Part shown: positions 4,157 to 57,055 of the stretch, piece by piece
How the letters are laid out: the number at the start of each line of letters is the position of its first letter
How positions within the stretch are numbered: position 1 is the stretch's first letter
NCBI GenBank assembly: GCA_038210595.1
Contig: JBBQWN010000005.1
Coordinates: 31,862-95,861 of the forward strand
DNA length: 64,000 nt
Direction: 5' to 3'
Origin: Sphingomonadales bacterium
Lineage (GTDB): Bacteria > Pseudomonadota > Alphaproteobacteria > Sphingomonadales > Sphingomonadaceae
Position numbers and translations under genes: made by a program
The notes under the pieces: generated by a model
Seen by the model: the letters and a program-made list of their open reading frames with translations, nothing else
The model's database searches: none
What the model was told of the DNA's origin: nothing

Positions 4157-4186
4157 TTGACTTGGGAGCCACCTCGCCCACATAAG
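4157..4186 (+). promoter_or_regulatory. Candidate sigma70-type promoter for the suf operon (TTGACT-N18-CATAAG)
   Basis: Read directly in the 146-bp divergent gap between the M20 gene and the Rrf2 gene. Pattern match only. Confidence 0.25.
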
Positions 4187-4218
4187 CCGGACGAAATCGC
4201 TCCGCTTTAGGAACCCGC

Positions 4219-6517: not shown

Positions 6518-6518
6518 G

Positions 6519-22497: not shown

Positions 22498-22506
22498 GTA
22501 ATTATG

Positions 22507-22532
22507 TTGCTATAAGGTCGCCCTTGTAGCAA
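22507..22532. promoter_or_regulatory. Near-perfect 26-bp palindrome TTGCTAtAAGGtcgcCCTTgTAGCAA between the transporter gene and pcs
   Basis: 11 of 13 positions pair by hand alignment. It sits 35 nt upstream of the pcs GTG. A second small palindrome, GGAAactgTTCC (22533-22544), follows. No U-tract. Confidence 0.4.
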
Positions 22533-22566
22533 GGAAACTGTTCCAATCGACTCGCAGGATGTATCC

Positions 22567-25500
22567 GTGGCGCTTCTTGACGACGACCTCACGCTTCGTG
22601 GCCCGGCATCCGCGCCGGCTGTCAACCCGGTCCGCGACCGCTCGGCTTGGGAAGCAATGCGCGCCGCAGTGCTTGCCGATCCCGGCCGCTTCCACGGCGA
22701 CATTGCCGGCGAGACCATCCACTGGCTGATCGACGGCGCCTGGCTGAGCCGCGACGGCGCGACCTGGAAGGGCTGGGACGCCGCCACCGCCGCCCCGGTC
22801 AGCCGCGACCTGGGCGCCGATTTCGCGCCCTGGACCAAGGCCTTCGACAACAGCGACGCGCCGCACTACCGCTGGTTCGCGGGCGCGCAGACCAATGCCG
22901 CGTTCAACGAGGTCGACCGGCATGTGCTCGCCGGCCACGGTGCGGAAGCCGCGCTGATCTTCGAGGGCGACCGCTGGGACATGGCGGCGAACAAGGGCCG
23001 CGGCGGCCCGGTGGACGAGTTTCCCGTCTCCCGCCGCACCCTGCTGCTGGAGAGCGCCAAGTGCGCGCTGGCGCTCAAAGCTTTAGGCCTGAAGCAAGGC
23101 GACAGCATCGCGATCAACATGCCGTCGATCGTGCCCCAGATCTTCTGGACGGAAGGCGCCAAGCGCGCCGGCGTCATCTACACGCCGGTGTTCGGCGGGT
23201 TCAGCGACAAGACGCTGAGCGACCGTATTCATGACGCCGGCGCCAAGGTCGTCATCACCGCCGACGGCGGCTACCGCACAGCGCAGGTCGCAGCGTTCAA
23301 GACCGCCTACACCGACCCGGCGCTCGACAACTACATCCCGGTCGAGGTCGCGCTGCGCTTGATCGACGGCCTCGATTTGCCCGCCGAGCAGAAGGCGGCA
23401 ATCCTCGAGGCCGCGAAGGCAGCGCTGAAGGGCGAAGTCACAGTCGAGCGCTCCGACGTCATGCGCGGCGTCGGCCGCGCCCTGGCGACGCTGGGCCTCG
23501 ACGCGGCAGAATCGAGCCAGGTCCGCATCGCGGTCGCCAGCGCACTGGTCGATTCGCCACCGCGCGTCGATGCCGTCATCGTCGTGAAGCACACCGCGAC
23601 GCCCGACCTGGTGTGGCGCTCGCGCGACCGCTGGAGCCACGAGCTGACCGACGCCGCGGGCAAGGAGATCCTCGCCGCCGCCGGGCTGGCATCGGAAGCC
23701 GACCTGCTGGCGCTGCCCGACGAGGCGTTCGTCGCGGCGATCTGGAAAGCCTGCCCGCCGCTGCCGGTCGATGCCGAATTCCCGCTGTTCGTCATCTATA
23801 CCAGCGGCTCGACCGGCAAGCCCAAGGGCGTCGTCCACGTCCACGGCGGCTATATCGCCGGCATCGCCCACACGATGAAGGTCGCGTTCGACGCGCGCCC
23901 CGGCGACGTGCTGTACGTCGTCGCCGATCCCGGCTGGATCACCGGGCAGAGCTACCTGATCTCGGCGGCGCTGACGACACGCACGACGACGCTGATCACC
24001 GAAGGCTCGCCGGTGTTCCCGCACGCCGGGCGCTTCGCCGCCAGCATCGAGCGCCACGGCGTCACCATCTTCAAGGCCGGCGTCACCTTCCTGAAGTCGG
24101 TGATGAGCGACCCGCAGAACCTGCGCGACCTGCGTTCGTGGGACATGAGCTCGCTGCGCGTCGCGACCTTCTGCGCCGAGCCGACGTCGCCGCCGGTGCA
24201 GGCGTTCGGCATGGCCGAGATCACGCCCTGGTACATCAATTCCTACTGGGCGACCGAGCACGGCGGTATCGCCTGGACGCAGTTCTACGGCGCCGCCGAC
24301 TTCCCGCTGCGCCCCGACGCCCACACCTGGGCGCTGCCGTGGATCGTCGGCGAGGTCCGTATTCCGACCGACGACGCCCTGACCCACGCCAAGTGGCGCG
24401 AGGCGGCGCGCGGCGAGAAGGGCGAGATCGTCATCGCGCGCCCCTATCCCTATCTCGCGCGCACCGTCTGGGGCGATGCCGCCAATGTCGGCCAGCCGGG
24501 CTGGAAGGGTGACGCGGCGCGCTGGGAGGGCAGCTACTGGACCCGCTGGGACGGCGCGCCTGCCTATACCCAGGGCGACTTCGCCGTGCAGCACGAGGAC
24601 GATTCGTTCAGCCTCCACGGCCGCAGCGACGACGTCATCAATGTCAGCGGCCACCGCATGGGCACCGAGGAGATCGAGGGCGCGATCCTGCGCGACCGGG
24701 CACTCGACCCCAACTCGCCGGTCGGCAACGTGCTCGTCGTCGGCGCGCCCGACGCGACCAAGGGCCTGACCCCGCTCGCCTTCGTCGTTGCCTCGCCGGG
24801 CCGCAAGATCACGCAAGCCGACCGCAACCGCCTGACCGAACTGGTGCGCAGCGAGAAGGGGCCGACCGCCGTCCCCGCCGATTATCTGGAGGTCAAGGCG
24901 TTCCCCGAGACGCGTTCGGGCAAATACGTTCGCCGCATGGTCCGCGCCCTGGTCGAGGGCGGCGACCTGGGCGACACCTCGACCCTGCGCAATCCCGAGA
25001 GCCTCGACGACCTGCGCGAGGTGATCACCACCTGGCAGCGCCGCCAGCACCTGAGCGAGACGCAGCAACTGTTCGAGCGCTACCGCTACTTCCGCATCCA
25101 GTACAACACTGTCGCGCCCGGCAAGAAGGTGGCGACGGTCACCATCACCAACCCGCCGGTCAATGCGCTGAACGAGCGCGCGCTCGACGAGCTCAACATC
25201 GTCGTCGATCACCTGTCGCACCGCGACGACGTGGTCGCGGTCGTGTTCACCGGCGAAGGCACCGCGAGCTTCGTCGCGGGTGCCGATATCCGCCAGTTCC
25301 TCGACGAGATTCACGACGAGGACGAGGCGCGCGTCCTGCCCAACAACGCCCAGCTGGCGTTCAACAAGATCGAGGCGATGGACAAGCCCTGCATCGCCGC
25401 CATCCAGGGCGTCGCGCTGGGCGGCGGCATGGAGTTCGCGCTCGCCTGCCATTACCGCATCGCGGAGCCACACGCCCGCTTCGGGCAGCCGGAGATCAGG

Positions 25501-27879: not shown

Positions 27880-30800
27880 ACGCACCGATCGTCGAGCCGC
27901 TGGTCGGCACCTCCGGGCGGCTCGCCGGCAAGATTGCGCTGGTCACCGGCGCGGCCGGCAACCTCGGCGGCGAGATCGTCCGCCACTACCTGCGCGAGGG
28001 CGCGACGGTGGTGATGACCGGGCGCACCCCGGCGCGCACCGATGCGGCGCGCGAGGCTGTTCTGGCAGAGACAGGTGCCGATCCGGCGCGGGTCTCGACC
28101 GTCGTGCTCGACGGCGCGGACGCCGCATCGGTCCGCGCCGGCATCGCCGCGGTTGTGGAGCGCCACGGTCGCATCGACATCCTCGTCAACAATGCGGGAT
28201 CGGCGGGGCCGAAGGCGCCGCTGGAGCGCGTGCCGCTGACCGCCGACGAACTGGCGAACGGCGATACCGAGACGGTCAGCGCGGCGGCGCGCAGCCTGCT
28301 TGGCGTCGCCTGGAATCTGGTCCGCGCGGCGGCGGACGCGATGCCGCCGGGCGGGTCGATCGTCAACGTCTCGACCATCTTCAGCCGCACCCAATATTAT
28401 GCGCGCACGGCCTATGTCGTGCCCAAGGCGGCAATGAATGCGCTGTCGAAGACACTGGCGCGCGAGCTGGGCTCCCGCGGCATCCGGGTCAACACGCTGT
28501 TCCCCGGCCCGATCGAGAGCGACCGCATCCGCACCGTCTTCGCGGCGATGGACAAGTTGCAGGGCAAGCCGGCGAACGCCACCGCCGACCATTTCACCGG
28601 CATCATGGCGTTGGCCCGTGGTGCGGCGGCAGCGGATGCCAAGCCGCTGCCGACGCCGACCGATATCGCCGCCACCTGCGTGTTTCTCGGTTCCGACGAG
28701 AGCGCCGCCTTCACCGGCCACGATTTCGAGGTCACGCACGGCATGGATGTGCCGAAGGAATCGCGTTCGACCTATCTGTCGCGGCCGACGATGCGCTCCA
28801 TCGATGGCGCGGGCCTCGGCATTGTCGTGGCCGGCGGCGACAGCCTTGCGGACGCGCTGGAGATTGCGCGAGTGCAGGCAAACTGCGGGGCGGCGGTCTT
28901 GCTCGGCTTCGGCAGCGACGCCGCGGTCGCGATGGTGCAGCGCCGCCTCGATGCCGAGCCCGCGACCGGCGCACTGACGCTGGCGCGCTTCGACCGTAGC
29001 GATCCGGCCCAGATGGAGGCGGCGCTCGAAGCCTTTGGAGCTGAGATCACCGGCGCGATCATCTTGCCCGAGTTTGGCAACGACTTCTTCAACGGGCCGC
29101 TGCACGCGGCGTCGGACGAACAGGTCGACAGCTTCATCGACGCCGAGCTGACCGGCGCCGTCGCCGTCGCGCGGTCGCTGACGCGCTACTGGAAGCGCCA
29201 CGACGCGCTGGTCCACGAGCCGCGCTTCGTGTTCGTCGGCGGGCCGTCGGACGGCGGCGACAACGGTTGGAACGGCCTGCTCGCGGCTGCCTGCGAGCAG
29301 CTGGTGCGGGTCTGGCGCGACGAGAGCCAGGTCGATGTCGCAGCCGGCAAGCGGCGGCAGGCGGAGTGGGGCAACCAGATCGTCCGCACCGACAACCACG
29401 AGCCGGAGAATGTCCGCTTCACCGCCGGCCAGTGCGCGCGCATCCTGCTGAAGGAGCGCAAGGTCCAGCCGATCAGCCTGTACCTGCCCGAATCGATCGG
29501 CGAGGCGACCGGCGCGCGCGTCGCCATGGTCGGGTTCGCCGAGAACATCACCGGGCTGCATCTCGGAAAGGTCGCGCTTATCACCGGCGGCTCGGCCGGC
29601 ATCGGCGGTCAGGTCGCGCGGCTGCTGGCGCTGGCGGGTGCCAAGGTCATGCTCGTTGCACGCCGCGAGAGCGAACTGGCGACAATGCGCGCGCGTATCG
29701 TCGGCGAGCTCGAGGACGTCGGCTTCTCCGGCGTCGAGCGGCGCGTCCGCACGCTGTCGGGCATCGACGTCAGCGACCACGCGGCGCTCAACAAGGCGGT
29801 CGACGAGACCATCGCCGCGTTCGGGCGCATCGACTATCTGATCAACAATGCCGGCATCTCCGGCGCCGAGGAGATGGTCGTCGACATGGACGTCGCCGCC
29901 TGGCGGCGGACGCTGGATGCGAATTTGATCTCCAACTACGTCCTCGCGCATGCCGTGGTGCCAAGGATGAAGGCGCAGGGTTCCGGCTACATCCTCAACG
30001 TCAGCAGCTATTTCGGAGGCGAGAAGCACCTTGCCGTCGCCTACCCCAACCGCGCCGACTATGCGGTCAGCAAGGCTGGACAGCGGGCGATGGCGGAGGC
30101 GTTCGCGCGGTCGCTGGGTCCGGAAATTCAGATCAACGCCATTGCGCCGGGCCCGGTCGACGGCGACCGCCTGTCGGGCAAAGACGGCAAGGCCGGACTG
30201 TTCGACCGCCGCGGCCGGCTGATTCTGGAAAACAAGCGGCTAAATGCCGTCCACTCGGCGGTCATCCGCGCCGTCCGGGGCGGCGCGGCGATAGACACCG
30301 TACTCGGTCGCCTGGCGCGCAACGACTCGGTCCGCATCGCCCATGACCGTGACAATCCGCGTGAGCTTCGCGATCTGGCGCTATCCTGTGCGCAGGAAGG
30401 CGACGAAACCTGCAGTTGGGACCGTTTCATCCTGACCCGCGAGATCGCCGCGCGGCTTGTCCGCCGCCTGCGGCTGGGCGGCTACCTGACCGCGTCGCCG
30501 GCCTGGGCCACACGTCCCTCTACGGACGAAGCCGATGGCAGCTGGCTGCTGCGCGTACCGCTCGACGACAAGCCCTGGCTGCCGCCGGCGCGGATCGCGG
30601 CCGAGGCGGCCAAGGTCGGTGGCGGCGTCACCTCGCTGCTCAACCTCGGCCGCATGCCGACCGAGGGCGAGGTTGCGCAGGCGACGGTGTTCTTCCTCGC
30701 CGACCGCGCCGTCAGCGGCGAATGCTTCATGCCGTCGGGCGGCCTGAGCCTCGAACGCTCGACCGTCGAGCGCGAACTGTTCGGCAGCCCCAAGGCCGAG

Positions 30801-31514
30801 CGGCTGGAGCAGATGGCGGGCAAGACCGTGTGGATTATCGGGGAGCACCTCGTCGATTATCTGGCGGGCTGCGCCCAGGCCTTTGCCGACCTAGCGGTGG
30901 CGCGCGTCGTGTTCATCACGCGAACAGATGAAGGGGCGGAGACGCTGACCGCCACCGTTGCCGGCGCTCCGCTCGAATGCGTGACGGCCGGCGATGACCT
31001 GGAGGGGGCGCTGGATCGTGCCCTTGCGCAATGGGGACCACCGACGACCATCGTTTCGTCGCCGTTCACGCCGCTGCCCGACCGCCTGTTCGGCGACGAA
31101 AGCCTGAGTCCGGCCGCGTTTGCGACTCTGTGCGAGGACAATCTGACTCATCACTTCCGGGTCAGCCGCAAGGCCTCGCTCTACGACCATTGCCAGCTGG
31201 TACTGGTCACCCCCGATGTCGAGATCGGGCGCACCGGCCCGGCGTTCGCACTGGCCAACTTCATCAAGACCTCGCTTCACGCCTTCACCGCGACGCTGGC
31301 GGTCGAGAACGAGCGGCTGATCCACGATGTGCCTGTCAATCAGATCAACCTGACCCGGCGCGTTCGCAGCGAGGAACCCCGCAACCGTGACGAACATGAG
31401 GAGGAGGTTCGCCGGTTCGCCCGCGCCGTGTTGCTGGCCGGCGCGCCGCTGCCCGACGCGGAGGACTCGCGTTACCGCGCCCGCATCTATCGCGGCATGT
31501 CGATGACCGTCTAA
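27876..31514 (+). CDS. mcr: Bifunctional malonyl-CoA reductase (malonyl-CoA -> malonate semialdehyde -> 3-hydroxypropionate), four SDR-type domains
   Basis: 1212 aa. GTGA overlap with pcs. Long stretches are near-identical to the Chloroflexus Mcr sequence as I recall it: GRLAGKIAL.TG.AGN.G; NVSTIFSR..YY.R..YV.PKAA.NALS; RGIRVNT.FPGPIESDRIRTVF; GLHLGKVALITGGSAGIGGQ; GSGYILNVSSYFGGEK; YPNRADYAVSKAGQRAMAE; GPEIQINAIAPGPV.GDRL; FALANFIKT.LHAFTAT. TGxxGxxG and YxxxK motifs are present in both halves. Confidence 0.95.
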   Translation: MNAPIVEPLVGTSGRLAGKIALVTGAAGNLGGEIVRHYLREGATVVMTGRTPARTDAAREAVLAETGADPARVSTVVLDGADAASVRAGIAAVVERHGRIDILVNNAGSAGPKAPLERVPLTADELANGDTETVSAAARSLLGVAWNLVRAAADAMPPGGSIVNVSTIFSRTQYYARTAYVVPKAAMNALSKTLARELGSRGIRVNTLFPGPIESDRIRTVFAAMDKLQGKPANATADHFTGIMALARGAAAADAKPLPTPTDIAATCVFLGSDESAAFTGHDFEVTHGMDVPKESRSTYLSRPTMRSIDGAGLGIVVAGGDSLADALEIARVQANCGAAVLLGFGSDAAVAMVQRRLDAEPATGALTLARFDRSDPAQMEAALEAFGAEITGAIILPEFGNDFFNGPLHAASDEQVDSFIDAELTGAVAVARSLTRYWKRHDALVHEPRFVFVGGPSDGGDNGWNGLLAAACEQLVRVWRDESQVDVAAGKRRQAEWGNQIVRTDNHEPENVRFTAGQCARILLKERKVQPISLYLPESIGEATGARVAMVGFAENITGLHLGKVALITGGSAGIGGQVARLLALAGAKVMLVARRESELATMRARIVGELEDVGFSGVERRVRTLSGIDVSDHAALNKAVDETIAAFGRIDYLINNAGISGAEEMVVDMDVAAWRRTLDANLISNYVLAHAVVPRMKAQGSGYILNVSSYFGGEKHLAVAYPNRADYAVSKAGQRAMAEAFARSLGPEIQINAIAPGPVDGDRLSGKDGKAGLFDRRGRLILENKRLNAVHSAVIRAVRGGAAIDTVLGRLARNDSVRIAHDRDNPRELRDLALSCAQEGDETCSWDRFILTREIAARLVRRLRLGGYLTASPAWATRPSTDEADGSWLLRVPLDDKPWLPPARIAAEAAKVGGGVTSLLNLGRMPTEGEVAQATVFFLADRAVSGECFMPSGGLSLERSTVERELFGSPKAERLEQMAGKTVWIIGEHLVDYLAGCAQAFADLAVARVVFITRTDEGAETLTATVAGAPLECVTAGDDLEGALDRALAQWGPPTTIVSSPFTPLPDRLFGDESLSPAAFATLCEDNLTHHFRVSRKASLYDHCQLVLVTPDVEIGRTGPAFALANFIKTSLHAFTATLAVENERLIHDVPVNQINLTRRVRSEEPRNRDEHEEEVRRFARAVLLAGAPLPDAEDSRYRARIYRGMSMTV

Positions 31515-31524
31515 AGAGGCGGCC

Positions 31525-32469
31525 ATGAACGATTGGCTGGATTTCGAGAAACCCGTGGCGGCACTCGCCGACAGCGCGGCAGCGCTGCGTACGGCGGGGA
31601 CGCCCGAAGCGCTGGCGGAGGCCCCGCGGCTCGAGGAACGGGCGAAGCGGTTGCTGGCCGACCTCTACGGTCGCCTCACCCCGGCCCAGCGAATGCAGGT
31701 GGCGCGCCACCCGGCGCGGCCGCACTTCAAGGATTATGTCGCCGCACTGATCGAAGATTTCGTGCCGCTGGCGGGCGACCGTGGGTTCGGCGAGGATGCG
31801 GCGATCGTCGGTGGCATCGGTCGATTGCAGGGGCGCAGCGTTGTCGTGATCGGCCACGAGAAAGGCAACGACACCGCCAGCCGGGTAAAGCACAACTTCG
31901 GCATGGGCCGGCCGGAGGGCTATCGGAAGGCGACACGCCTAATGCAGCTGGCTGGCCAGTTCGCGCTTCCCGTCGTTACTTTCGTCGATACGCCCGGCGC
32001 CTATCCGGGCTTGGAAGGCGAAGCGCGCGGACAGGCGGAGGCGATCGCCCGCGCCACCCAAGCCTGCCTTGAGCTGCCAGTACCAATGGTTGCGGCGATC
32101 GTCGGCGAGGGCATGTCGGGCGGCGCGATCGGGCTGGCCGCCGCCAACAAGCTGCTGATGTTCGAGCATGCCGTCTATGCGGTCATCTCGCCCGAGGGCT
32201 GCGCCTCTATCCTGTGGCGCGGCGAGGCCGGCAGGGCGGCGGACGCCGCCGCCGCGATGAAGATCACCGCGGCCGACCTGCTCCGCCTCGGCATCATCGA
32301 CCGGATCGTCTACGAGCCCCCCGGCGGAGCGCACCGCGATCCGGCAACCGCGATGGCGCGGCTGGGTAGTGCGATCGGCGAAGAGCTTGGCAGTCTCGCC
32401 GGGCTGGACGCCGCGGCGCTGAGAAAGCAACGCCGCGACAAGTTCATCGCAATGGGCCGCAACCTGTAG
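31525..32469 (+). CDS. accA: Acetyl-CoA carboxylase carboxyltransferase alpha subunit
   Basis: 314 aa. MNDWLDFEKPVAAL...ARHPARPHFKDYV...RPEGYRKA.RLM.LA..F.LPVVTFVDTPGAYPG..GEARGQAEAIA. It starts 10 nt after the mcr stop, with AGAGG as a Shine-Dalgarno-like element. Confidence 0.95.
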   Translation: MNDWLDFEKPVAALADSAAALRTAGTPEALAEAPRLEERAKRLLADLYGRLTPAQRMQVARHPARPHFKDYVAALIEDFVPLAGDRGFGEDAAIVGGIGRLQGRSVVVIGHEKGNDTASRVKHNFGMGRPEGYRKATRLMQLAGQFALPVVTFVDTPGAYPGLEGEARGQAEAIARATQACLELPVPMVAAIVGEGMSGGAIGLAAANKLLMFEHAVYAVISPEGCASILWRGEAGRAADAAAAMKITAADLLRLGIIDRIVYEPPGGAHRDPATAMARLGSAIGEELGSLAGLDAAALRKQRRDKFIAMGRNL

Positions 32470-44374: not shown

Positions 44375-44495
44375 CGACGTGATCTCCCGTGGCGGTAGCG
44401 CAACGAGCGAACCTTATCCCTAGTTTCCGAGTAGGTATTATGACGAAAAACTTTTGCGATGCTTAGCCGGGCTATGCGGCCGCAGCTGAGCGCGG

Positions 44496-44921
44496 CTATG
44501 CCGCGACGCGCACCGGATCGATGTCGGCGAGGCTGGTGCCGTCGAGGATCGTCGCGGTCTTGTCGCGGACCAGCAGCATCAGCTTGCGGATGGCGCAGAC
44601 CGATTCCTCGAAACAGTCGGGGCAGCGCTGATAGGCGGTCTGGCTGACGCATGGCACCAGCGCCAGCGGCCCCTCGATCAGCCGGATGATCTCGCCGAAC
44701 GAAATCGCGGACGCTGGCCGCGCCAGCCGGTAGCCGCCGAGCTTGCCGCGCGAACTGGTCACCAGCCCGCCGTTCTTGAGTTCGAGCAGGATGATCTCGA
44801 GGAACTTGCGCGGCAGCTTCTGATCCGCCGCGATCGCGCTCATCGGCACCGGCGCGATACCGGGGGCACGGGCGAGAAAGATGAGCGCGCGGAGGGCGTA
44901 GCGCGAACGCTGGGTCAGCAT
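44496..44921 (-). CDS. Rrf2-family transcriptional regulator upstream of the sulfate uptake operon
   Basis: MLTQRSRYALRALIFLA...LPRKFLEIILLELKNGGLV.S.RG..GGY.LARP is the Rrf2 wHTH. Cys residues CVSQ...CPDC...C are present. The start was set at the second ATG (the track ORF begins at 44936). Confidence 0.85.
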   Translation of the reverse strand: MLTQRSRYALRALIFLARAPGIAPVPMSAIAADQKLPRKFLEIILLELKNGGLVTSSRGKLGGYRLARPASAISFGEIIRLIEGPLALVPCVSQTAYQRCPDCFEESVCAIRKLMLLVRDKTATILDGTSLADIDPVRVAA

Positions 44922-45039
44922 CGCCGCGTCATGCACCCGCCAGCCGGTGGATTCAAGCGACGGGGCGATGAACGGCGTGGCGCTTGCCCCGCCCGGCGGA
45001 GGCGCTAGACCGTTGCGGCGATGACTTAAGGAGTCGCGA

Positions 45040-45834
45040 ATGCGCTATTCGGGCAAGACCATCGTCGTCACCGGCTCCGGCCGCGAGCAGGGGCTGGGAC
45101 AGGCGATCCTGCAGCATTTTGCCGGCGAGGGCGCCAACTGCGTCGTCTCCGACCTGGCGATCACTGCGGAGACGGAGGGCGTCGCCGAGGACCTGCGCAA
45201 GCGCGGCGGTACGGTCGCCTGCATCCCCTGCGACGTCGGCGCGCCCGCCCAGTGCGCGACACTGATCGACCGCACCATCGATGTGTTCGGCGGCGTCGAC
45301 GTGATGGTCAACAACGCCGGCATCGGCTTCATGATGCAGCCGCTGCTGGAGGCCGATCCCGAAGACTGGGACCGGGTGCTGGCGGTCAACCTGTCAGGGG
45401 CGTTCTATTGCACCCAGGCCGCGGCGCGGGCGATGATCAAGGGCGGCAAGGGCGGCCGCATCATCAACATCGCCAGCCAGGCCGGCAAGACGCCGGTGCT
45501 GCACATGGCGAGCTATGTCGCCTCGAAGCACGGCATGATCGGCCTGACCCGCGCCGCCGCGCTGGAGCTGGGCGGCTATGGCATAACGGTCAACGCGGTG
45601 TGCCCCAACCACGTCACCACCGGGCTGGGCAGCCGCCAGAACGAGTATTTCTCCAAGCTGCTGGGGTTCGAGAGCGTCGCGGCCTATCTCGACAATCTCG
45701 CGCGCCACAACCCGATGGGGCGGCCGGGGCTGGCCACCGACACCGCCCGCGCCTGCGCCTGGCTGGCCAGCGACGACGCCGCCTACATCACCGGCGAGGC
45801 GCTGAACGTCTCGGGCGGCGAGGAAATGCATTGA
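45040..45834 (+). CDS. Short-chain dehydrogenase/reductase (FabG-like)
   Basis: TGSGREQGLG (TGxxxGxG-like), NNAG, and YVASKHG (YxxxK). Confidence 0.9.
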   Translation: MRYSGKTIVVTGSGREQGLGQAILQHFAGEGANCVVSDLAITAETEGVAEDLRKRGGTVACIPCDVGAPAQCATLIDRTIDVFGGVDVMVNNAGIGFMMQPLLEADPEDWDRVLAVNLSGAFYCTQAAARAMIKGGKGGRIINIASQAGKTPVLHMASYVASKHGMIGLTRAAALELGGYGITVNAVCPNHVTTGLGSRQNEYFSKLLGFESVAAYLDNLARHNPMGRPGLATDTARACAWLASDDAAYITGEALNVSGGEEMH

Positions 45835-47748: not shown

Positions 47749-48591
47749 ATGAGCCAAGCTCGCCCGTACGCGGGCGGGGTGGCGGCCCCCGGCTTCGGCC
47801 GGGGGTTGGCGCTGCTGCTCGCCCTGTTGCTAGCGCTCCTCACCAGCGTCGCACACGCCGCGCCGACGTTCCCGCCGCTGACCGGCCGCGTCACCGATGC
47901 GGCCGGCGTGCTGCCCGCCGATGTCGCGGCATCGCTTAGCGCAAAGCTAGAGGCACTGGAGACCGCGACCGGCACGCAGCTGGTGGTCGCCACGGTGCCG
48001 TCGCTGCAGGACAACCCGATCGAGGACTACGGCTATCAGCTCGGCCGCGCCTGGAACATCGGCCAGAAGGGCACCAACAACGGCGTCATCCTGCTGGTCG
48101 CGCCGACCGAGCGCAAGGTGCGGATCGAGGTCGGCTACGGGCTCGAGGACCGGCTGACCGACGCGATGAGCGAGACCATCATCCGCAACAACATCATCCC
48201 GAGCTTCAAGGCCGGGGACCTGCCCGGCGGGGTCGTCGCGGGCACCGACGCGCTGATCGCGCAGCTGCAGGCCCCGGCCGATGAGGCGCGCGCCAACCTT
48301 GCCGCCGCCGCCGCGCAGCCGCGCGCCAAGCAACGCTCCGGCGGTCCCGGCTTCGGCGCCTTCGTGTGGCTGGCGATCATCGGATTATGGCTGTTCTTCT
48401 CGGTGTTCCGGGGCTCGCGCGGCCGGCGCTCCTCCGGCGTCGGCGAGGCGATCTTGTGGGGTGTCGCCAGCGGCATGTTCAACAACCGCGGCGGTGGTGG
48501 CGGCGGCTGGGGCGGTGGCGGCGGCGGCGGCGGCGGCTTTTCGGGCGGCGGCGGGTCGTTCGGCGGCGGCGGCGCGAGCGGCGGCTGGTAA
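47749..48591 (+). CDS. TPM-domain protein (YgcG-like) with a C-terminal TM segment and poly-Gly tail
   Basis: Signal peptide, then PPLTGRVTDAAGVLPADV...TGTQLVVATVPSLQ...GVILLVAPTERKVRIEVGYGLE (TPM/phosphatase-like domain). The tail is GGGGGGWGGGGGGGGFSGGGGSFGGGGASGGW. Confidence 0.8.
   Translation: MSQARPYAGGVAAPGFGRGLALLLALLLALLTSVAHAAPTFPPLTGRVTDAAGVLPADVAASLSAKLEALETATGTQLVVATVPSLQDNPIEDYGYQLGRAWNIGQKGTNNGVILLVAPTERKVRIEVGYGLEDRLTDAMSETIIRNNIIPSFKAGDLPGGVVAGTDALIAQLQAPADEARANLAAAAAQPRAKQRSGGPGFGAFVWLAIIGLWLFFSVFRGSRGRRSSGVGEAILWGVASGMFNNRGGGGGGWGGGGGGGGGFSGGGGSFGGGGASGGW
48487..48588. repeat. Low-complexity (GGC/GGT)n tract encoding the poly-Gly tail
   Basis: About 100 nt composed almost entirely of GGC/GGT/GGG codons, read directly. 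It produces the poly-Pro shadow ORF on the opposite strand. Confidence 0.9.
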
Positions 48592-49268
48592 TGGCGTTCA
48601 CCGACACCGACCGCGCCCGTATCGCCGACGCCATCGCCGCGGCGGAGCTGAACACCACCGGCGAGATCGTCTGCATCGTCAACGAGCACCCGCACCGTTA
48701 TGCCGCGACCGGGCTGACCGTCGCTGCGCTGGCGGCGTTCGTGGTGCCGTTCGCGGCGGTCTACGCGGGCCTCGACTTCGCCGCGCTGACGCCGTGGCGG
48801 AGCTGGACCGGCAGCGGCTTCGCTGCCGACCTGCGCGGCGGCATCGAGGCCTATGCACTGGTCCAGGTTGTGGTCTTCGCCGTGGTCGCGGCGCTGGGCG
48901 TGTGGACCGGGCTGGGCGCGGCGCTGACGCCCAGGGGCCTGAAGCGCGACCGTGTGCACGCCGAGGCGCTGAGCCAGTTCCGGGCACGCGGCATGGGGCG
49001 GACGCGGGCCGCCACCGGCGTGCTGATCTATGTCGCCACCGCCGACCGCATCGCCGAGGTCGTCGCCGACGCCGGCATCTACGAGAAGGTCGCACCGGAG
49101 CACTGGGCGACAACGGTCGCCGCGCTGATCGCCGGCATCAAGGCCGGCGACACGGCGCGCGGCTTCGTCGATGCGGTCGGGCTGGCGGGCACGGTGCTGG
49201 CCGAGCATTTTCCGCCGGTTATCGACGACAATCCCAACGAACTGCCGGACCGCCTGATCGAGCTCTGA
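48591..49268 (+). CDS. TPM-domain membrane protein (second TPM gene of the LemA module)
   Basis: TAATG overlap with the previous gene. MAFTDTDRARIADAIAAAELNTTGEIVCIV..., two TM helices, then ATGVLIYVATADRIAEVVADAGI (TPM core). Confidence 0.75.
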   Translation: MAFTDTDRARIADAIAAAELNTTGEIVCIVNEHPHRYAATGLTVAALAAFVVPFAAVYAGLDFAALTPWRSWTGSGFAADLRGGIEAYALVQVVVFAVVAALGVWTGLGAALTPRGLKRDRVHAEALSQFRARGMGRTRAATGVLIYVATADRIAEVVADAGIYEKVAPEHWATTVAALIAGIKAGDTARGFVDAVGLAGTVLAEHFPPVIDDNPNELPDRLIEL

Positions 49269-49351
49269 CGCCGCAGTGCGGAACCGAATCGGGGAGTCCC
49301 CGGTTTCTCCAGCATGAACGGGCCGCCAGGCCGCGGGCGAGAGAGACCGAG

Positions 49352-50272
49352 ATGCTGACCCCCTTTACGGCGCGCACGCCGCTGCGTGCGCCGACCGACG
49401 AACGTCGCGACAACGCCTTTCAGGAGGCACTGACCCGGTTCAACCGCGAGCGGCTGGCCACGGCGATGCCGTGCGGCGACTGGGAGGCGACGCTTGCCGC
49501 AGAGACTGCGATGCGCCTGGCCGAAGGCCGCTGGATCGAGACCGAGCGCCGCGCCGTCGCCGAGCGCGCCGCCGCCGCGCCGGCGGATCCGCAAGGCTTC
49601 GTGGCGTGGTTCGAGGCGCTGCTCGAAGGCGGACCGGGCCAGGGCGACCCGCTGTTCCCGTGGCTCGCCGATCACGCCACGCTGGCCGAACTCAGCTGGT
49701 ATCTGGAGCAGGAGGTCGCCGGCGAGGCGGGCTTCGACGATCTCGTCGCGCTGACCCAGGTCAAGCTGCCGGACCGTGCGAAGATGGAGCTGGCGCGCAA
49801 CTACTGGGACGAGATGGGGCGCGGCAATATGGCCGGGATGCACGGCCCGATGCTGGGCGCGCTCGCCGACAAGCTGGGCCTGAAACCGACGATCGAGACG
49901 ACGGTCGCCGAGAGCCTGGCTCTGGCCAACACGATGGTCGCGTTCGCCACGTCGCGCCGCTACGTCTGGCACTCGGTCGGCGCGCTCGGGGTCATCGAGC
50001 TGACCGCCCCGGCGCGTTCGGCGGCTGTCGCGGCGGGACTGCGGCGGCTGGGCTATAGCGACAAGGACCGCCGCTATTTCGATCTCCACGCCGTGCTCGA
50101 CGTCAAGCACTCGGCCGAGTGGAACAAGGAGGCGATTCTGCCGATCATGGCCGAGTTTCCCGATGCCGGGCGCTACATGGCAGAGGGCGCGCTGATGCGG
50201 CTGGAGTGCGGCGCGCGCTGCTTTGCGCGCTATCGTGCGGAGCTGTGGGGCGAAAAGCGGGTGGCGGCCTGA
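49352..50272 (+). CDS. Heme-oxygenase-like 'iron-containing redox enzyme' family protein (CADD/PqqC/TenA-like fold)
   Basis: 306 aa after ATG 49352 (the upstream part of the track ORF is shadow frame). ELARNYWDEMGRGNMAGMHGPML and FDLHAVLDVKHSAEW resemble the E-x-x-H metal-ligand helices of this family. Confidence 0.65.
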   Translation: MLTPFTARTPLRAPTDERRDNAFQEALTRFNRERLATAMPCGDWEATLAAETAMRLAEGRWIETERRAVAERAAAAPADPQGFVAWFEALLEGGPGQGDPLFPWLADHATLAELSWYLEQEVAGEAGFDDLVALTQVKLPDRAKMELARNYWDEMGRGNMAGMHGPMLGALADKLGLKPTIETTVAESLALANTMVAFATSRRYVWHSVGALGVIELTAPARSAAVAAGLRRLGYSDKDRRYFDLHAVLDVKHSAEWNKEAILPIMAEFPDAGRYMAEGALMRLECGARCFARYRAELWGEKRVAA

Positions 50273-50408: not shown

Positions 50409-51665
<1,257 letters not shown>

Positions 51666-51781: not shown

Positions 51782-52231
51782 TCAAGCGGCGAACGGCTTC
51801 ACGATTGCCAGAATGACGATCAGGATCGTCGCCAGCGCCGGCACCTCGTTCAGCAGGCGCAGGGTCTTTTCGGCATAGGGCCGCTCGCCGCGCGCAAATT
51901 TCTTCGCCGTGCCCGCCAACCAGCCGTGATAGCCCGACAAAAAGACCACCAGCGTGATCTTCAGGTGCAGCCAGCCCGCGCCCGCGAAACCGTAGCTCGT
52001 CGCCACCATCAGCCCGAGCACCCATACCAGCACCAGCCCCGGATTGACGATGATCCGCAGGATCCGCCGGTTGCGCTCGTTCCACAGCGCATCCTCCGCC
52101 GAGCCGACGGGTGCAGCCATCTGATAGACCAGGAAGCGGGGCAGCATGAACAGACCCGCCATCCAGAAGATCACCGCGATTACGTGGAACGCCTTGACCC
52201 AGTCGTAGGCGCCGCCGAGCCAGCCGGTCAT
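51782..52231 (-). CDS. hemJ: Protoporphyrinogen IX oxidase HemJ-type membrane protein
   Basis: 149 aa, 4 TM. WVKAFHVIAVIFWMAGLFMLPRFLVY is the HemJ/UPF0093 signature. ATGA overlap with hemE. Confidence 0.8.
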   Translation of the reverse strand: MTGWLGGAYDWVKAFHVIAVIFWMAGLFMLPRFLVYQMAAPVGSAEDALWNERNRRILRIIVNPGLVLVWVLGLMVATSYGFAGAGWLHLKITLVVFLSGYHGWLAGTAKKFARGERPYAEKTLRLLNEVPALATILIVILAIVKPFAA

Positions 52232-53259
52232 CCCCGCACGATCCCGATCAATTCCTCGACATGCGCGATCGGCGTGTCCTGCAGGATGCCGTGGCCGAGG
52301 TTCATGATGTGCGGCCGCTCCTCGAACGCTGCCCGGATACGGGTCACACTCGACTTCAGCGCCTCGCCGCCGGCGATCAGCGCTAGGGGATCGAGATTGC
52401 CCTGGACCGGCATGCCGGGCGGCAGCATCGCGTCCGCCCAGGCCGGATCGATCGTCTCGTCCAGCCCGACCGCATCGATGCCGGTTTCGGCCGCATAGGC
52501 CGCGAGCTTGGCCCCGGCGCCCTTGGGGAAGCCGATCACCGGAATATCGCCGTGCCGGACCATCAGGCGGCCGACGATATCGGCGGTCGGCGCGATCACC
52601 CAGCGTTCGAACTGCGCCGGCGACAGGCTGCCCGACCAGCTGTCGAACAACTGCACCGCCTGCGCCCCCGCCGCGATCTGGCCCGACAGATAATCGACTG
52701 TGGTGTGGACGATGCGGTCGATCAGCGCCTGAAATGCGCCCGGATCGCGGTAGGCCAGCCGCCGTGCCGCCTCATGGTCTTTGGAGCCCTGACCCGCGAC
52801 CATATAGGTGGCGACGGTCCAGGGGGACCCGGCGAACCCCAGCATCGCGACTTCGGGGCTGAGCTCGGCGCGCACGCGGCGGACCGTCTCGTAGATCGGC
52901 AGGAAGCGTTCCGGCGCGGCATCCAGCGCATCGAACGCCCCGTCGAGCAGCGCCGGGGTCAGCCGCGGCCCCTCGCCCGGCCCGAAGGTCAGGTCCTGGC
53001 CCAGCGCGTGCGGCACGATCAGGATATCGGAAAACAGGATTGCGCCGTCGAGGCCGAAGCGGCGGATGGGCTGGAGCGTGATCTCGGCCGCCGCCTCGCT
53101 GTCATAGACCAGGGCCAGAAAGCCGCCCTTGGCCTCCCTGAGCGCGCGATACTCGGGCAGGTAACGCCCGGCCTGACGCATCAGCCACAGCGGCGGCGTG
53201 TCGAGACGTTCGCCCCCGAGCACGGTGAGGATCGGGGCGGGGCTGGGCGTGGTGATCAT
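52228..53259 (-). CDS. hemE: Uroporphyrinogen decarboxylase
   Basis: 343 aa from the ATG (complement of 53257-53259). PPLWLMRQAGRYLPEYR is the diagnostic HemE motif. The track ORF (to 54282) continues upstream through non-coding DNA and antisense to the next gene. Confidence 0.95.
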   Translation of the reverse strand: MITTPSPAPILTVLGGERLDTPPLWLMRQAGRYLPEYRALREAKGGFLALVYDSEAAAEITLQPIRRFGLDGAILFSDILIVPHALGQDLTFGPGEGPRLTPALLDGAFDALDAAPERFLPIYETVRRVRAELSPEVAMLGFAGSPWTVATYMVAGQGSKDHEAARRLAYRDPGAFQALIDRIVHTTVDYLSGQIAAGAQAVQLFDSWSGSLSPAQFERWVIAPTADIVGRLMVRHGDIPVIGFPKGAGAKLAAYAAETGIDAVGLDETIDPAWADAMLPPGMPVQGNLDPLALIAGGEALKSSVTRIRAAFEERPHIMNLGHGILQDTPIAHVEELIGIVRG

Positions 53260-53559
53260 GTCAGCCGTCAATGCCGCCTGCACCACTGCCTTGCAAAGAA
53301 TCTTTAGAAAGAGATGAGATGGTAATGGTGCGGTGGGTCGCGGGGATAAGTCGGGTGTCCCGCACGCATCCACAGCTGCGAACCCGTCCGGCCTTTGGAA
53401 ACGGCGCGAGTCGCCGGGGTTGTCCCCGCTGTCCACAGGGCTGCCTGTGGATTCGCGGGTGATGTTGAGCGTGAAGCCGAAGCCGCCCGGTTTTGCTGCC
53501 TTGCCCGATTCCGCGCCCGCCACTAACCCTCTGGCGACTGCTTCTCCACAGGCTTTGCC
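53260..53559. other. Candidate chromosomal replication origin (oriC) in the hemE / DUF299 divergent intergenic region
   Basis: Four TCCACA-core DnaA-box-like 9-mers: GCATCCACA 53366-53374, CTGTCCACA 53429-53437, TGTGGATTC 53446-53454 (reverse), and TTCTCCACA 53542-53550 (8/9 to TTATCCACA). Two TTRTCCCCG copies lie in opposite orientation (53341-53349 reverse, 53420-53428). A 40-nt AT-rich patch at 53291-53330 has 14 G/C of 40. Flanking synteny (hemE on one side, DUF299-maf-aroE-coaE-dnaQ on the other) matches that described for the Caulobacter and Rickettsia origins. Confidence 0.6.
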
Positions 53560-54393
53560 GTGACCCGCCTCCACCTCCACCTGGTTTCCGATTCGACTGG
53601 CGAAACGCTTGAATCGGTTGCCAAGGCGGGCCTCGCGCGGTTCGAGGGCGTCGAGGCGGTCAAGCATTTCTGGCCGATGGTGCGTAGCGAAGGCCATCTC
53701 GACCGCGTGTTCGAGGATATCGCCCGGCGGCCCGGGCTGGTGCTCTACACTTTGGTCGCCGGGCCGGTGCGCAACCGGCTGGAAACCCGCTGTGCTGCAA
53801 TGGGCCTGCCGATGGTGTCGGCGCTCGACCCGACGATCGAGGCCCTGTCCGAACTGCTCGGCCAGTCGGCGACGACCCGGCCCGGCCGCCAGCATGTCAT
53901 GGACGCCGCCTATTTCCGCCGGGTCGATGCGATCAACTACACGATGGTCCACGACGACGGGCAGCAGTCCGAGAACTGGGAGGAGGCCGACATCGTGCTG
54001 GCGGGCGTGTCGCGCAGCAGCAAGACGCCGACCGCGATCTATCTCGCCAACCGCGGCTACAAGACTGCCAACATGCCAGTGGTGCCGCAGTCGCCGCCGC
54101 CGGCCGCGCTGTTCACTTTGCGCCGGCCGCTGGTCGTCGGGCTGACCACCAGCCCGGAGCGGCTGGTGGCGATCCGCCGCAACCGCCTGCTGACGATGGG
54201 GCAGACTGCCGACACCGACTATGTCGAGCTCGACCGGGTCGCGGCCGAAGTGGCTTTCGCGCGCCGGCTTTTCGCCGACCACGACATTCCGGTGATCGAC
54301 GTGACTCGCCGCTCGATCGAGGAATCGGCGGCCGCGATCATCAACCTGGTGCAGGCGCGCGATGTCGCCCGCGGCGTCGACACGCTGCTGTGA
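53560..54393 (+). CDS. Bifunctional kinase/pyrophosphorylase regulator (PpsR/PDRP, DUF299; RP001-like)
   Basis: GTG start. HLHLVSDSTGETLE... and P-loop GVSRSSKTPT are the DUF299 signatures. Confidence 0.88.
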   Translation: MTRLHLHLVSDSTGETLESVAKAGLARFEGVEAVKHFWPMVRSEGHLDRVFEDIARRPGLVLYTLVAGPVRNRLETRCAAMGLPMVSALDPTIEALSELLGQSATTRPGRQHVMDAAYFRRVDAINYTMVHDDGQQSENWEEADIVLAGVSRSSKTPTAIYLANRGYKTANMPVVPQSPPPAALFTLRRPLVVGLTTSPERLVAIRRNRLLTMGQTADTDYVELDRVAAEVAFARRLFADHDIPVIDVTRRSIEESAAAIINLVQARDVARGVDTLL

Positions 54394-54986
54394 CGCTGGT
54401 GCTCGCCTCGACTAGCGCCAGCCGCCAGGCGATGCTGCGCGCCGCGCAGGTGCCGTTCGAGGCGGTCGCGCCGAACGTCGACGAGAGAGAGATCAAGGCA
54501 TCGATGGTCGCCGCCGGCGCGGGTGCGCGCGAGGTTGCCGACGCGCTCGCCGAGCTGAAGGCGTGCAAGGTGTCGCGGCGGCTGCCCGGCGCGCTGGTGC
54601 TCGGGTCCGACCAGATCCTCGAATGCGATAACGGCACCCTGCTCGACAAGCCCGAGGGGCGGGACGGGGCGGCGGCGCATCTGCGCCGCTTGATGGGCCG
54701 CGACCACCGGCTGGTCTGCGGCGCGGTGATCGCGCTGGACGGGCAGCCGGTGTGGCGGGTGGTCGATACCGCGCGCCTGTCGATGCGGACGCTCAGCGAC
54801 GCGTTCATCGCCGCCTATCTCGACCTGGAGGGCGAGGCGGTGCTTAGCTCGGTCGGGGCTTACCGGATCGAGGGGCCGGGTGCGCAGCTGTTCACGCGCA
54901 TCGACGGCGATCATTTCACGGTCATGGGCCTGCCGCTGCTGCCGGTGCTCGACTATCTGAGGGTGCGCGGGGTGATCGCGTCGTGA
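54390..54986 (+). CDS. maf: Maf-like nucleoside triphosphate pyrophosphatase
   Basis: GTGA overlap with the previous gene. LVLASTSASRQAML...LGSDQI...AYRIEG.GAQLF..I.GD...VMGLPL is the Maf family pattern. Confidence 0.88.
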   Translation: MTLVLASTSASRQAMLRAAQVPFEAVAPNVDEREIKASMVAAGAGAREVADALAELKACKVSRRLPGALVLGSDQILECDNGTLLDKPEGRDGAAAHLRRLMGRDHRLVCGAVIALDGQPVWRVVDTARLSMRTLSDAFIAAYLDLEGEAVLSSVGAYRIEGPGAQLFTRIDGDHFTVMGLPLLPVLDYLRVRGVIAS

Positions 54987-55789
54987 GGCCGTTTGCCGAA
55001 GTCATCGGCGACCCGATCGCGCAGTCGAAGTCGCCCGCCATCCACGGCTTCTGGCTGGCGCGGCGGGGCATCGACGCGGACTACCGCGCCACCCACGTTA
55101 CCCCCGACCGGCTGGCGGCGCACATGGCGGCGCGGGCCGCCGATCCGCTGTGGCGCGGCAGCAATGTCACCATCCCCCACAAGCTGGCGGTGATCGATCA
55201 TGTCGGCGATCCCGGCGGGGTGCGCGCCAGCATCGGCGCAATGAACACGGTGTTCCGCCAGGACGGGCAGGTGATCGGCACCAATACCGACGCGGCGGGC
55301 TTCTATGCGCCCATCGCAGGACTCGATCTGGCGGGCCAGCCGGTGATCGTTGTCGGGGCGGGCGGCGCGGCGCGGGCGGTGCTGTTCGCGCTGGCACGTG
55401 CCGGGGCAGGGCCCGTGACGGTTCTGGCGCGGTCGCCGTTGAAGGCGATGGGCCTGCTCGCGCAATTCGGGCTGAGCGGCGAGGTCAGGCCGATGACGGC
55501 GCGCCTGCCGCCGGCCGCGCTGCTGGTCAACGCCAGCCCGCTCGGCATGACCGGCCAGCCGCCGCTCGAGCTCGACCTGTCGCCGCTGCCAGAGGCGTGC
55601 GTGGTCTATGACATCGTCTATGCGCCGCTGGAGACGCCGCTGCTGGTCCAAGCACGCGCGCACGGCCTCGACACCGTTGACGGCCTCGACATGCTGATCG
55701 GCCAGGCGGCGGTAGCGTTCGAGCTGTTCTTCGGCGTCGCGCCGCCGCGCGAAGCGGACGACGAACTGCGCGCGATGCTGACCGCATGA
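54983..55789 (+). CDS. aroE: Shikimate dehydrogenase
   Basis: [18 protein letters not shown]...GSNVTIPHK...NTDAAGF...[11 protein letters not shown] are AroE motifs. Confidence 0.9.
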
Positions 55790-56397
55790 GCCTGATCATC
55801 GGCCTGACCGGTTCGATCGGCATGGGCAAGTCGACCGTCGCGGCGATGTTCGCGCGGCTGAAGGTGCCGGTGTTCGACGCCGACGCCGCCGTCCATGCGC
55901 TGCAGGGGCCGGGCGGCGCGGCGCTTCCCGCCATCGAGGCGGCGTTTCCGGGCACGACCTCGCCCGCCGGGCTGGACCGCGCCAAGCTCGGCGCGGCGGT
56001 GTTCGGCGATGCGGCGGCGCTGCAGCGGCTGGAGGCGATCATCCACCCGCTGGTCGGCGCGGCGCAGGCCCAGTTCCTGGCGCGTCACCGGCGCCGGCGG
56101 CTGGTGGTGCTCGACATTCCACTGCTGTTCGAAAAGGGCGGCGCGGCCAAGGTCGATGTCACCGTCGTCGTCTCTGCGCCCCCCGAGATCCAGCGCGCCC
56201 GCGTGCTCGCCCGGCCCGGTATGACGCCGGCGAAATTCGCGGCGATCCTCGCCCAGCAGCTGCCCGACGCCGAGAAGCGTGCGCGGGCCGACATCGTCAT
56301 CCCCACCGGCGTCGGCCGCCAGGTGACGCGGCGCGTTGTCGAGCGCATCGTGGCTTGTCTGTCGGCCGCGGAACCGCGATATCGCCGCCATGCGTGA
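55786..56397 (+). CDS. coaE: Dephospho-CoA kinase
   Basis: [14 protein letters not shown]-loop at the N-terminus. [10 protein letters not shown]. Confidence 0.9.
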
Positions 56398-57055
56398 GAT
56401 TGTCTTCGACACCGAAACCACCGGCATCATGCCCGGCGACGGCCACAGGATCGTCGAGATCGGCGCGCTGGAGATGGTCGGCAAGGTCCTGACCGGGCGC
56501 AGTTTCCACACCTATCTCGACCCGTGCCGGGCGATGCCCAAGGACGCGCAGGGCGTGCATGGGCTGAGCAGCGATTTCCTGACCGGCCAGCCGGTGTTCG
56601 AGGCGGTGGTCGACGAGTTCCTGGCGTTCATCGAGGATTCGCCGCTGGTTGCCCATAACGCGGTGTTCGACTTCGGCTTCGTCAATTTCGAGCTGCGCCG
56701 CGCCGGCATGAAGATGCTGCCCGACAGCCGCATGGTCTGTACGCTGGAGATGAGCCGCAAGAAGCATCCGGGTGCCAAGCACACGCTCGATGCGCTGTGC
56801 AACCGCTACGGCGTCGACCTGTCGGCCCGCACCAAGCATGGCGCGCTGCTCGATGCGGAGCTGCTGGCGCGCGTCTATGTCGAGCTGTGCGGGGGCCGGC
56901 AGATCGGTTTCGACCTTGCCGCCGATACCGCCGCCGAGGCCGCGCCGGTCGAACGGGTTGCCCATGTCGCGCGCGCCCATGCGGCATCCGACGCCGAACT
57001 GCTGCGCCACGCCGCGTTCATTGCGACGTTGAAGGACCCCGTCTGGTTGTCCTGA
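56390..57055 (+). CDS. dnaQ: DNA polymerase III epsilon subunit (3'-5' proofreading exonuclease)
   Basis: [13 protein letters not shown] (ExoI), [12 protein letters not shown] (ExoII), and [14 protein letters not shown] (ExoIII). The ATG at 56390 overlaps the coaE end by 8 nt. Confidence 0.92.

Follow-up and report, generated by a model that had tools for sequence, protein, structure and literature searches.

A probable hemE-linked chromosomal replication origin in an uncultured sphingomonad genome

Where does chromosome replication begin in an uncultured member of the Sphingomonadales whose genome is close to those of Polymorphobacter and Sandarakinorhabdus? The question is raised by a 300-nt gap at positions 53260-53559 of the 64-kb stretch of its DNA analysed here (the window), which lies between a minus-strand open reading frame (ORF) with its ATG at 53259, the hemE gene, and a plus-strand ORF with its GTG at 53560, a DUF299 gene. 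An earlier inspection of the letters alone (the sequence-only reading) had proposed this gap as a likely replication origin, and the proposal is supported by synteny, a cluster of DnaA boxes, an AT-rich element, positions kept in 78 related loci and published predictions. As Ori-Finder and DoriC already place the chromosomal origin (oriC) of sphingomonads between hemE and the DUF299 gene, the gap is read as a hemE-linked alphaproteobacterial oriC of sphingomonad type, an assignment from comparative sequence evidence that we regard as highly probable. Judged by the same comparison, it is an ortholog of the predicted sphingomonad origins. The sequence of the gap is not an artefact of assembly, since independent contigs assembled from two sediment metagenomes match 53011-53597 and 53049-53679 with zero differences; the only public read runs containing window sequence are metagenomes.

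The following DnaA-box-like elements were identified in the gap:

53332-53340, minus strand: doubtful 9-mer CGACCCACC, the second, weak member of a hemE-proximal pair.
53341-53349, minus strand: TCCCCG-core 9-mer TTATCCCCG, the clear member of the hemE-proximal pair.
53332-53349, minus strand: hemE-proximal double box formed by TTATCCCCG and CGACCCACC, pointing to the AT-rich patch.
53366-53374, plus strand: DnaA-box-like 9-mer GCATCCACA, 7/9, with a TCCACA core.
53420-53428, plus strand: TCCCCG-core 9-mer TTGTCCCCG, first half of the central double box.
53429-53437, plus strand: DnaA-box-like 9-mer CTGTCCACA, with a TCCACA core.
53420-53437, plus strand: central double box of the abutting 9-mers TTGTCCCCG and CTGTCCACA, the best conserved block of the gap alignment.
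53446-53454, minus strand: DnaA-box-like 9-mer GAATCCACA, with a TCCACA core, overlapping the GANTC site GATTC at 53450-53454.
53542-53550, plus strand: best DnaA box of the gap, TTCTCCACA, 8/9, ending 9 nt before the GTG start codon of the DUF299 gene.

By sequence, the gap thus contains one doubtful 9-mer and six clear ones, of which four are built on TCCACA and two on TCCCCG. The entire window holds eighteen TCCACA cores, four of them in the gap; every other 300-nt stretch has at most one, as has each of the 14 further intergenic regions that are 80 nt or longer. Judged from the window outside the gap, 0.066 cores would be expected per 300 nt (Poisson P of at least four, 7e-7, or about 5e-4 allowing for scanning), while first-order Markov simulations using the composition of the gap itself give an expectation of 0.13 (P of at least four, 5e-6). 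The sequence-only reading had described four TCCACA-core 9-mers, far more than chance would provide, one of the boxes agreeing with the consensus at 8/9 positions, together with two opposed TTRTCCCCG elements. All of this is borne out: between 0.07 and 0.13 cores are expected, the 8/9 box is TTCTCCACA at 53542-53550, and the opposed elements are TTATCCCCG (53341-53349, minus strand) and TTGTCCCCG (53420-53428, plus strand).

Relatives of the locus were collected by a scan with the DUF299 protein, taking one genome per species, which yielded 80 loci, all from Sphingomonadales. The closest of these (76-84% identity) belong to Polymorphobacter, Sandarakinorhabdus and metagenome-assembled genomes. 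In the closed genome of Polymorphobacter sp. (NZ_CP180346.1, L004), the orthologous gap falls between bases 2,040,860 and 2,053,660 of 2,817,605. The gaps of 78 relatives were usable, giving 79 with that of the window, and were compared with flank sets of 6 kb; motifs were mapped over the gaps and 24 gaps were aligned (alignment A1). Gap length ranges from 270 to 528 nt, the 300 nt of the window being among the shortest. The density of TCCACA is 7.6 per kb inside the gaps and 0.29 per kb outside them, and the box cluster recurs in 73 of the 79 gaps. The perfect box TTATCCACA was found in 56 gaps and the variant TTATCCCCA in 41, with none of the 6-kb flank sets containing either. One could suppose that the cluster is a chance grouping of hexamers in a slightly AT-richer intergenic region, the G+C content of the gap being 63% versus about 69% for the window; this supposition is refuted by the P of 5e-6 obtained under the dinucleotide composition of the gap and by the recurrence in 73 gaps, and its probability is considered negligible.

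A common architecture was apparent in the relatives when read from hemE towards DUF299. It begins with an AT-rich segment carrying a conserved GANTC site (AAGAnTCT), followed by consecutive triplets of the form T[A/T]G, often TAGTAGTAG, and by one or two minus-strand boxes that read TGTGGATNN and/or TGGGGATAA on the top strand. A plus-strand box lies 25 nt onward, after which come a GCGAGTCGC motif with a GANTC site and an 18-bp abutting pair of TTATCCCCG and TTATCCACA, placed 14 nt downstream of where the motif begins. A convergent TGTGGA partner and a promoter-like TTGCC...CTAnGC block follow, and the series closes with a last box that directly precedes the DUF299 start codon. All boxes of the window occupy one of these family positions with conserved spacing. 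The minus-strand box is separated by 25 nt from the next box, GCATCCACA, a spacing equal to that of TTATCCACA or TGATCCACA in relatives L029, L034 and L035, and the GANTC motif lies 23 nt from the central TCCACA box, as in relatives. From the central TCCACA box to the last box the distance is 113 nt in the window versus 123-134 nt in relatives, nearly all of which have TTATCCACA or TTATCCCCA at this last position.

The central double box was examined as an 18-mer. In the window it reads TTGTCCCCGCTGTCCACA, with three mismatches to the 18-mer TTATCCCCGTTATCCACA, and the inverted hemE-proximal copy, which faces the AT-rich patch, reads TTATCCCCGCGACCCACC, with four mismatches. At up to four mismatches, TTATCCCCGTTATCCACA is present in 67 of the 79 gaps versus 3 of 2581 background chunks of 300 nt (0.1%). 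The box GAATCCACA converges on the central box, forming a palindrome of TCCACAGG, 4 nt and CCTGTGGA, and the TGTGGA partner is kept in many relatives. No description of a zero-spacer abutting double box was met in the origin papers cited here.

Two further elements on the hemE side of the gap are of the kind expected where DNA is unwound:

53295-53329, no strand: AT-rich patch of lowest duplex stability, a candidate DNA-unwinding element (DUE), containing the GANTC site GAATC at 53298-53302.
53320-53328, plus strand: degenerate triplets TGG TAA TGG resembling DnaA-trios, placed by alignment; relatives have TAG TAG TAG or TTG TAG here.

The AT-rich patch is the least stable 35-nt duplex in the 64 kb by nearest-neighbour energy (-40.4 versus a mean of -56.2 kcal/mol, standard deviation 3.6), lying about 4.4 standard deviations above the window mean. 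The 40-nt patch with 14 G/C reported by the sequence-only reading was recovered, with windows of exactly that content starting at 53287, 53290 and 53291, and just three places in the 64 kb reach this value. The other two places with 40-nt stretches of at most 14 G/C, at 44414-44495 and about 22480-22520, are short intergenic spacers without DnaA-box cores, one between the genes for a sulfate-binding protein and an Rrf2 regulator and the other upstream of a propionyl-CoA-synthase-like gene. Among relatives, the AT-rich segment has the consensus AAGAnTCT...AAAAGA.

Runs of at least two consecutive T[A/T]G or TAA triplets on the plus strand occur in 59 of the 79 gaps versus 0.13 per 380 nt outside; their placement at the expected spot was seen in the loci displayed. 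In relatives, runs of TAGTAGTAG or TTGTAG stand directly 5' of the hemE-proximal box, at a distance of about 90-105 nt from the start of hemE (gap position 95 in L030 and 100 in L034-L036), and their strand is the one that DnaA-trios would be expected to occupy. The orientation rule for a box relative to its trios is known from the origins of E. coli and B. subtilis, and the geometry of a box facing an AT-rich patch resembles that of R1 and the 13-mers of E. coli oriC as well as the layout of the basal unwinding system (BUS). The BUS comprises DnaA boxes, DnaA-trios (3'-GAT-5') and an AT-rich region (PMC10721633). Relatives match this arrangement in that the strand reading TGTGGATAA or TGGGGATAA has two or three TAG triplets, that is 3'-GAT-5', just 5' of the box and an AT-rich stretch beyond. 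The window agrees in having the AT-rich patch, a 13-nt GC-rich spacer and then TTATCCCCG (53341-53349, minus strand) facing the patch, and differs in its triplets (TGG TAA TGG) and in the doubtful second box of the pair.

GANTC sites form the densest cluster of the 64-kb window within the gap, at 53298, 53408, 53450 and 53507, with one more at about 53590 inside the DUF299 ORF. Relatives show 16.4 GANTC sites per kb in the gap versus 1.9 per kb outside, an 8.6-fold difference, and the conserved positions are the AT-rich patch, the GCGAGTCGC motif, the overlap with a box and the spacer of the DUF299 promoter. The GCGAGTCGC motif itself was found in 36 of 79 gaps versus 2 flank sets, and is represented in the window by one feature:

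53406-53414, no strand: conserved GCGAGTCGC motif, containing the GANTC site GAGTC at 53408-53412.

The genes flanking the gap, identified with NCBIfam models, are as follows:

50409-51665, minus strand: rho.
51782-52231, minus strand: hemJ.
52228-53259, minus strand: hemE (uroporphyrinogen decarboxylase), the left boundary (TIGR01464, 379.8 bits).
53560-54393, plus strand: DUF299/PDRP (regulator of pyruvate phosphate dikinase/PEP synthase), the right boundary (NF003742).
54390-54986, plus strand: maf.
54983-55789, plus strand: aroE.
55786-56397, plus strand: coaE.
56336-57055, plus strand: dnaQ.

The right-hand cluster thus spans 53560-57055 on the plus strand, and the models agree with the order given in the sequence-only reading (rho-hemJ-hemE, gap, DUF299-maf-aroE-coaE-dnaQ). 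The order from hemJ-hemE across the gap to DUF299-maf-aroE-coaE-dnaQ is kept in every locus that reaches far enough, and the boundary between hemE and DUF299 in all 78. The downstream cluster of maf, aroE, coaE and dnaQ is reportedly the same in Caulobacter, as part of the Caulobacter/Rickettsia gene cluster ascribed to Brassinga et al. in 2001.

The origin of Caulobacter crescentus, Cori, has been mapped experimentally between hemE and duf299/CCNA_00001, and contains two moderate G-boxes and five weak W-boxes, an AT-rich region, five GANTC sites and five CtrA sites (PMC6393856, PMC1914354). The gap resembles Cori in its boundary genes, in its sub-consensus boxes, including a TCCCC-core class like the W-boxes, in an AT-rich region on the hemE side, in having five GANTC sites within the origin or at its border, and in putative promoters of hemE and duf299 at the origin edges. 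It differs in lacking CtrA sites, the consensus for integration host factor (IHF) and any small RNA detectable with Rfam, and in that dnaA lies neither within 53 kb to its left nor within 10 kb to its right. The absence of TTAA-N7-TTAA noted in the sequence-only reading was confirmed: neither a full nor a loose CtrA site, nor a half-site, was found in the window gap, and the gaps of the 78 relatives have no full site and no half-site, with a loose TTWW-N7-TTWW in 8 of 78. Its suggestion that cell-cycle control may differ from that in Caulobacter, taken as an absence of CtrA control, holds for the window gap. A consensus search for the IHF site WATCAN5WTR gave no match in the window gap and a match in 8 of 78 relatives, the site not being conserved. 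Scans of the whole window returned no Rfam family and no tRNA, and a Pfam search of the window found none of dnaA, dnaN, gyrB and parAB.

Within the family, published work places oriC at the same position. It was predicted beside hemE in Sphingopyxis granuli TFA and in "most Sphingomonadaceae" by Ori-Finder/DoriC, with a figure in Additional file 1 showing rho, a membrane protein and hemE, then oriC, then yqfL, with conserved DnaA boxes and a DUE (PMC4741004). Likewise, it was predicted at the hemE gap in four hexachlorocyclohexane-degrading strains of Sphingobium/Sphingomonas (PMC5144681) and in Novosphingobium PP1Y and N. aromaticivorans (PMC4059872); the criteria of Ori-Finder/DoriC, as given there, are base-composition asymmetry, DnaA boxes and marker genes. 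These predicted origins, from the same order as the window, share its flanking genes, with DUF299 (yqfL) to one side of the gap and hemE, a membrane protein (HemJ) and rho to the other, as well as several conserved boxes and an AT-rich DUE on the hemE side. The window differs in having neither a perfect TTATCCACA nor TTATCCCCA, at least one of which is present in most relatives, and in its gap length. The 18-bp double box, the conserved GANTC sites and the trio-like run are not described in the available parts of this sphingomonad work.

A cluster of DnaA boxes outside the dnaA context could also be a locus that titrates or reactivates DnaA, like datA or DARS of E. coli. To our knowledge, no locus of this type is conserved at hemE in Alphaproteobacteria. 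The AT-rich element, the trio-like repeats and the inward-facing box make up an architecture for unwinding, and in relatives Ori-Finder puts the origin itself at hemE, though DnaA boxes are one of its criteria (PMC4741004, PMC4059872). A titration locus is therefore rated as highly improbable.

The DUF299 side of the gap carries signals of transcription, one of which was added to the feature list:

53501-53528, plus strand: inferred promoter of the DUF299 operon (TTGCCC, 16 nt, CTAACC), with the TTGCC and CTAnGC/CTAACC blocks conserved in alignment A1 and GATTC at 53507 in the spacer.

As a scan of 53100-53700 for E. coli-type promoter and terminator consensus sequences gave no match, it is from conservation that these promoter suggestions are drawn. 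On the hemE side, GTCAAG, which reads CTTGAC along the strand of hemE, is conserved in relatives about 35 nt ahead of the ATG of that gene (columns 70-75 of alignment A1) and suggests a promoter for a nearly leaderless hemE mRNA. The equivalent in the window is ATTGAC at 53267-53272, just 7 nt from the called hemE ATG; therefore either about 30 nt are absent from the window here or the hemE start is miscalled.

Such signals bring up the possibility that the gap is only a DnaA-regulated divergent promoter, for hemE on one side and DUF299-maf-aroE-coaE-dnaQ on the other, and that replication starts at another site, such as one close to dnaA. The best box (53542-53550) comes after the conserved promoter-like element and stops 9 nt short of the DUF299 start, the operon includes dnaQ, the window holds no skew or co-orientation signal, and dnaA is not in it. 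Nevertheless, when six or seven boxes stand together with a conserved double box, with the least stable duplex of the window and, in relatives, with trio-like repeats, the architecture is that of an origin and not of an operator. In Caulobacter, moreover, the homologous gap is where the origin has been mapped (PMC6393856), and in complete sphingomonad genomes it is the gap chosen by Ori-Finder, at the switch in base composition (PMC4741004, PMC4059872). Regulatory and origin roles are also compatible. An exclusively regulatory gap is consequently thought unlikely, and it is within an origin that the last box probably regulates the DUF299-to-dnaQ operon as well.

Several observations weigh against placing the origin in this gap. 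It contains no perfect DnaA box, all of its boxes being sub-consensus, and its trio-like element is degenerate, failing a strict pattern of at least two triplets and having the central A in one triplet only. The published sphingomonad placements are computational and not experimental (PMC4741004, PMC5144681, PMC4059872). The cumulative GC skew has its minimum in the window at about 26 kb and not at 53.4 kb, and the proportion of coding bases co-oriented with a departing fork is 43% on the left arm, with 89% on the right. The motif GGGNAGGG, an E. coli KOPS (FtsK-orienting polar sequence) whose validity in this clade is not established, lies 4:1 on the unexpected strand to the left of the gap (5 sites). 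Finally, a second cluster of boxes may exist elsewhere, dnaA lying outside the window.

The skew evidence was examined gene by gene. The coding strand is rich in C at third codon positions by about 0.1 in GC3 skew (skew at third codon positions) at any position, and when GC3 skew was regressed on gene strand together with a switch of variable position, no placement of the switch gave a meaningfully better fit and no replication signal was detected anywhere in the window (r of at most 0.025). As the profile follows gene strand, skew within the window neither supports nor contradicts an origin here. Genes diverge at the gap in every one of the 80 loci, so that coding strand and leading strand are confounded. 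The divergence of genes on both sides, put forward in the sequence-only reading, stands locally, with three genes on the left, and fails over the whole left arm; being only local, it makes co-orientation a weak argument.

The sub-consensus boxes, the degenerate trio-like element and a gap among the shortest of the 79 would all suit a relic, the hemE-linked origin of the ancestors having decayed in this lineage and initiation now taking place at another site. Against such decay, each box keeps its position and orientation, neither the TCCACA cores nor the AT-rich patch has been lost, and the Caulobacter origin works with only weak and moderate boxes (PMC6393856). The boxes of the nearest relatives (L047, L048, L023, L045 and L056) are likewise sub-consensus, which is why this feature is read as a trait of the clade, as in Caulobacter, rather than as decay. 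A relic is regarded as very unlikely. The alternatives to a functional hemE-linked oriC are all rated low. None of them accounts for a conserved multi-box scaffold that occurs together with an inward-facing box, with the least stable duplex and, in relatives, with trio-like repeats, all at the locus where the alphaproteobacterial origin has been mapped.

If the gap is the origin, initiation may proceed along the following lines. Over about 220 bp, DnaA-ATP would occupy the six or seven boxes, all of them short of the consensus; the TCCACA core is present in four and the TCCCCG core in two. A cooperative scaffold is probably provided by the central pair, whose members abut, and the box that converges on it. 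The hemE-proximal box or pair (53332-53349, minus strand) would face the AT-rich patch across the 13-nt GC-rich spacer, and a DnaA oligomer nucleated there could extend onto the trio-like triplets and melt 53295-53329; this extension is the least secure step, given that the triplets of the window are degenerate. Helicase would then be loaded and replication would proceed bidirectionally. The five clustered GANTC sites suggest that the state of CcrM-type methylation marks the origin, and through the box at 53542-53550 DnaA occupancy is probably linked to the transcription of DUF299-maf-aroE-coaE-dnaQ as well. CtrA would have no direct action at this origin.

CtrA competition is the explanation that has been offered for the weak boxes of Cori (PMC6393856). 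It is conceivable, though doubtful, that the present lineage fires from solely sub-consensus boxes with a degenerate trio and no CtrA sites, control being exerted through GANTC methylation and the 18-bp double box. If true, a weak-box origin design would be separated from CtrA competition.

Elsewhere in the window, three adjacent plus-strand genes at 22516-32469 are of partial 3-hydroxypropionate-bicycle type, genes of which are known in sphingomonads that are aerobic anoxygenic phototrophs. They encode a 1787-aa fusion of acyl-CoA synthetase, enoyl-CoA hydratase and reductase with a full-length match to PDB 6eqo (2629 bits), which we take to be the propionyl-CoA synthase of Erythrobacter sp. 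NAP1; a 1223-aa protein with two short-chain dehydrogenase/reductase (SDR) parts and full-length matches to 8hi4, 8hjw and 6k8s, presumably bifunctional malonyl-CoA reductases; and accA (31507-32469). A SUF iron-sulfur cluster operon is located at 4186-10357 with an Rrf2-family regulator ahead of it, its Pfam content being SufBD, ABC ATPase, a class-V aminotransferase of the cysteine desulfurase type and an A-type carrier of Fe-S biosynthesis. A second Rrf2 regulator (44496-45044) adjoins sulfate ABC transporter genes and a gene for an O/P-type porin. At 48135-50272, long ORFs overlap on both strands and gene boundaries are ambiguous; the only domain in a 663-aa plus-strand ORF is Haem_oxygenas_2 (iron-containing redox enzyme), at the C-terminus, and a second plus-strand frame has a weak TPM domain.

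The position of this origin is one already predicted for the family and nothing in it is mechanistically unexpected; the understanding of how alphaproteobacterial origins work is unchanged. For the organism, the assignment fixes the zero point of the replicon in an uncultured Polymorphobacter/Sandarakinorhabdus-like sphingomonad, which helps to close and orient assemblies, to read skew and to estimate growth from metagenome coverage. For the order, the comparison of 79 loci amounts to a map of the origin region, recording the order and spacing of boxes, the double box, the GANTC sites, the trio-like run and the absence of conserved CtrA or IHF consensus sites, and this map could guide experiments in cultured relatives.

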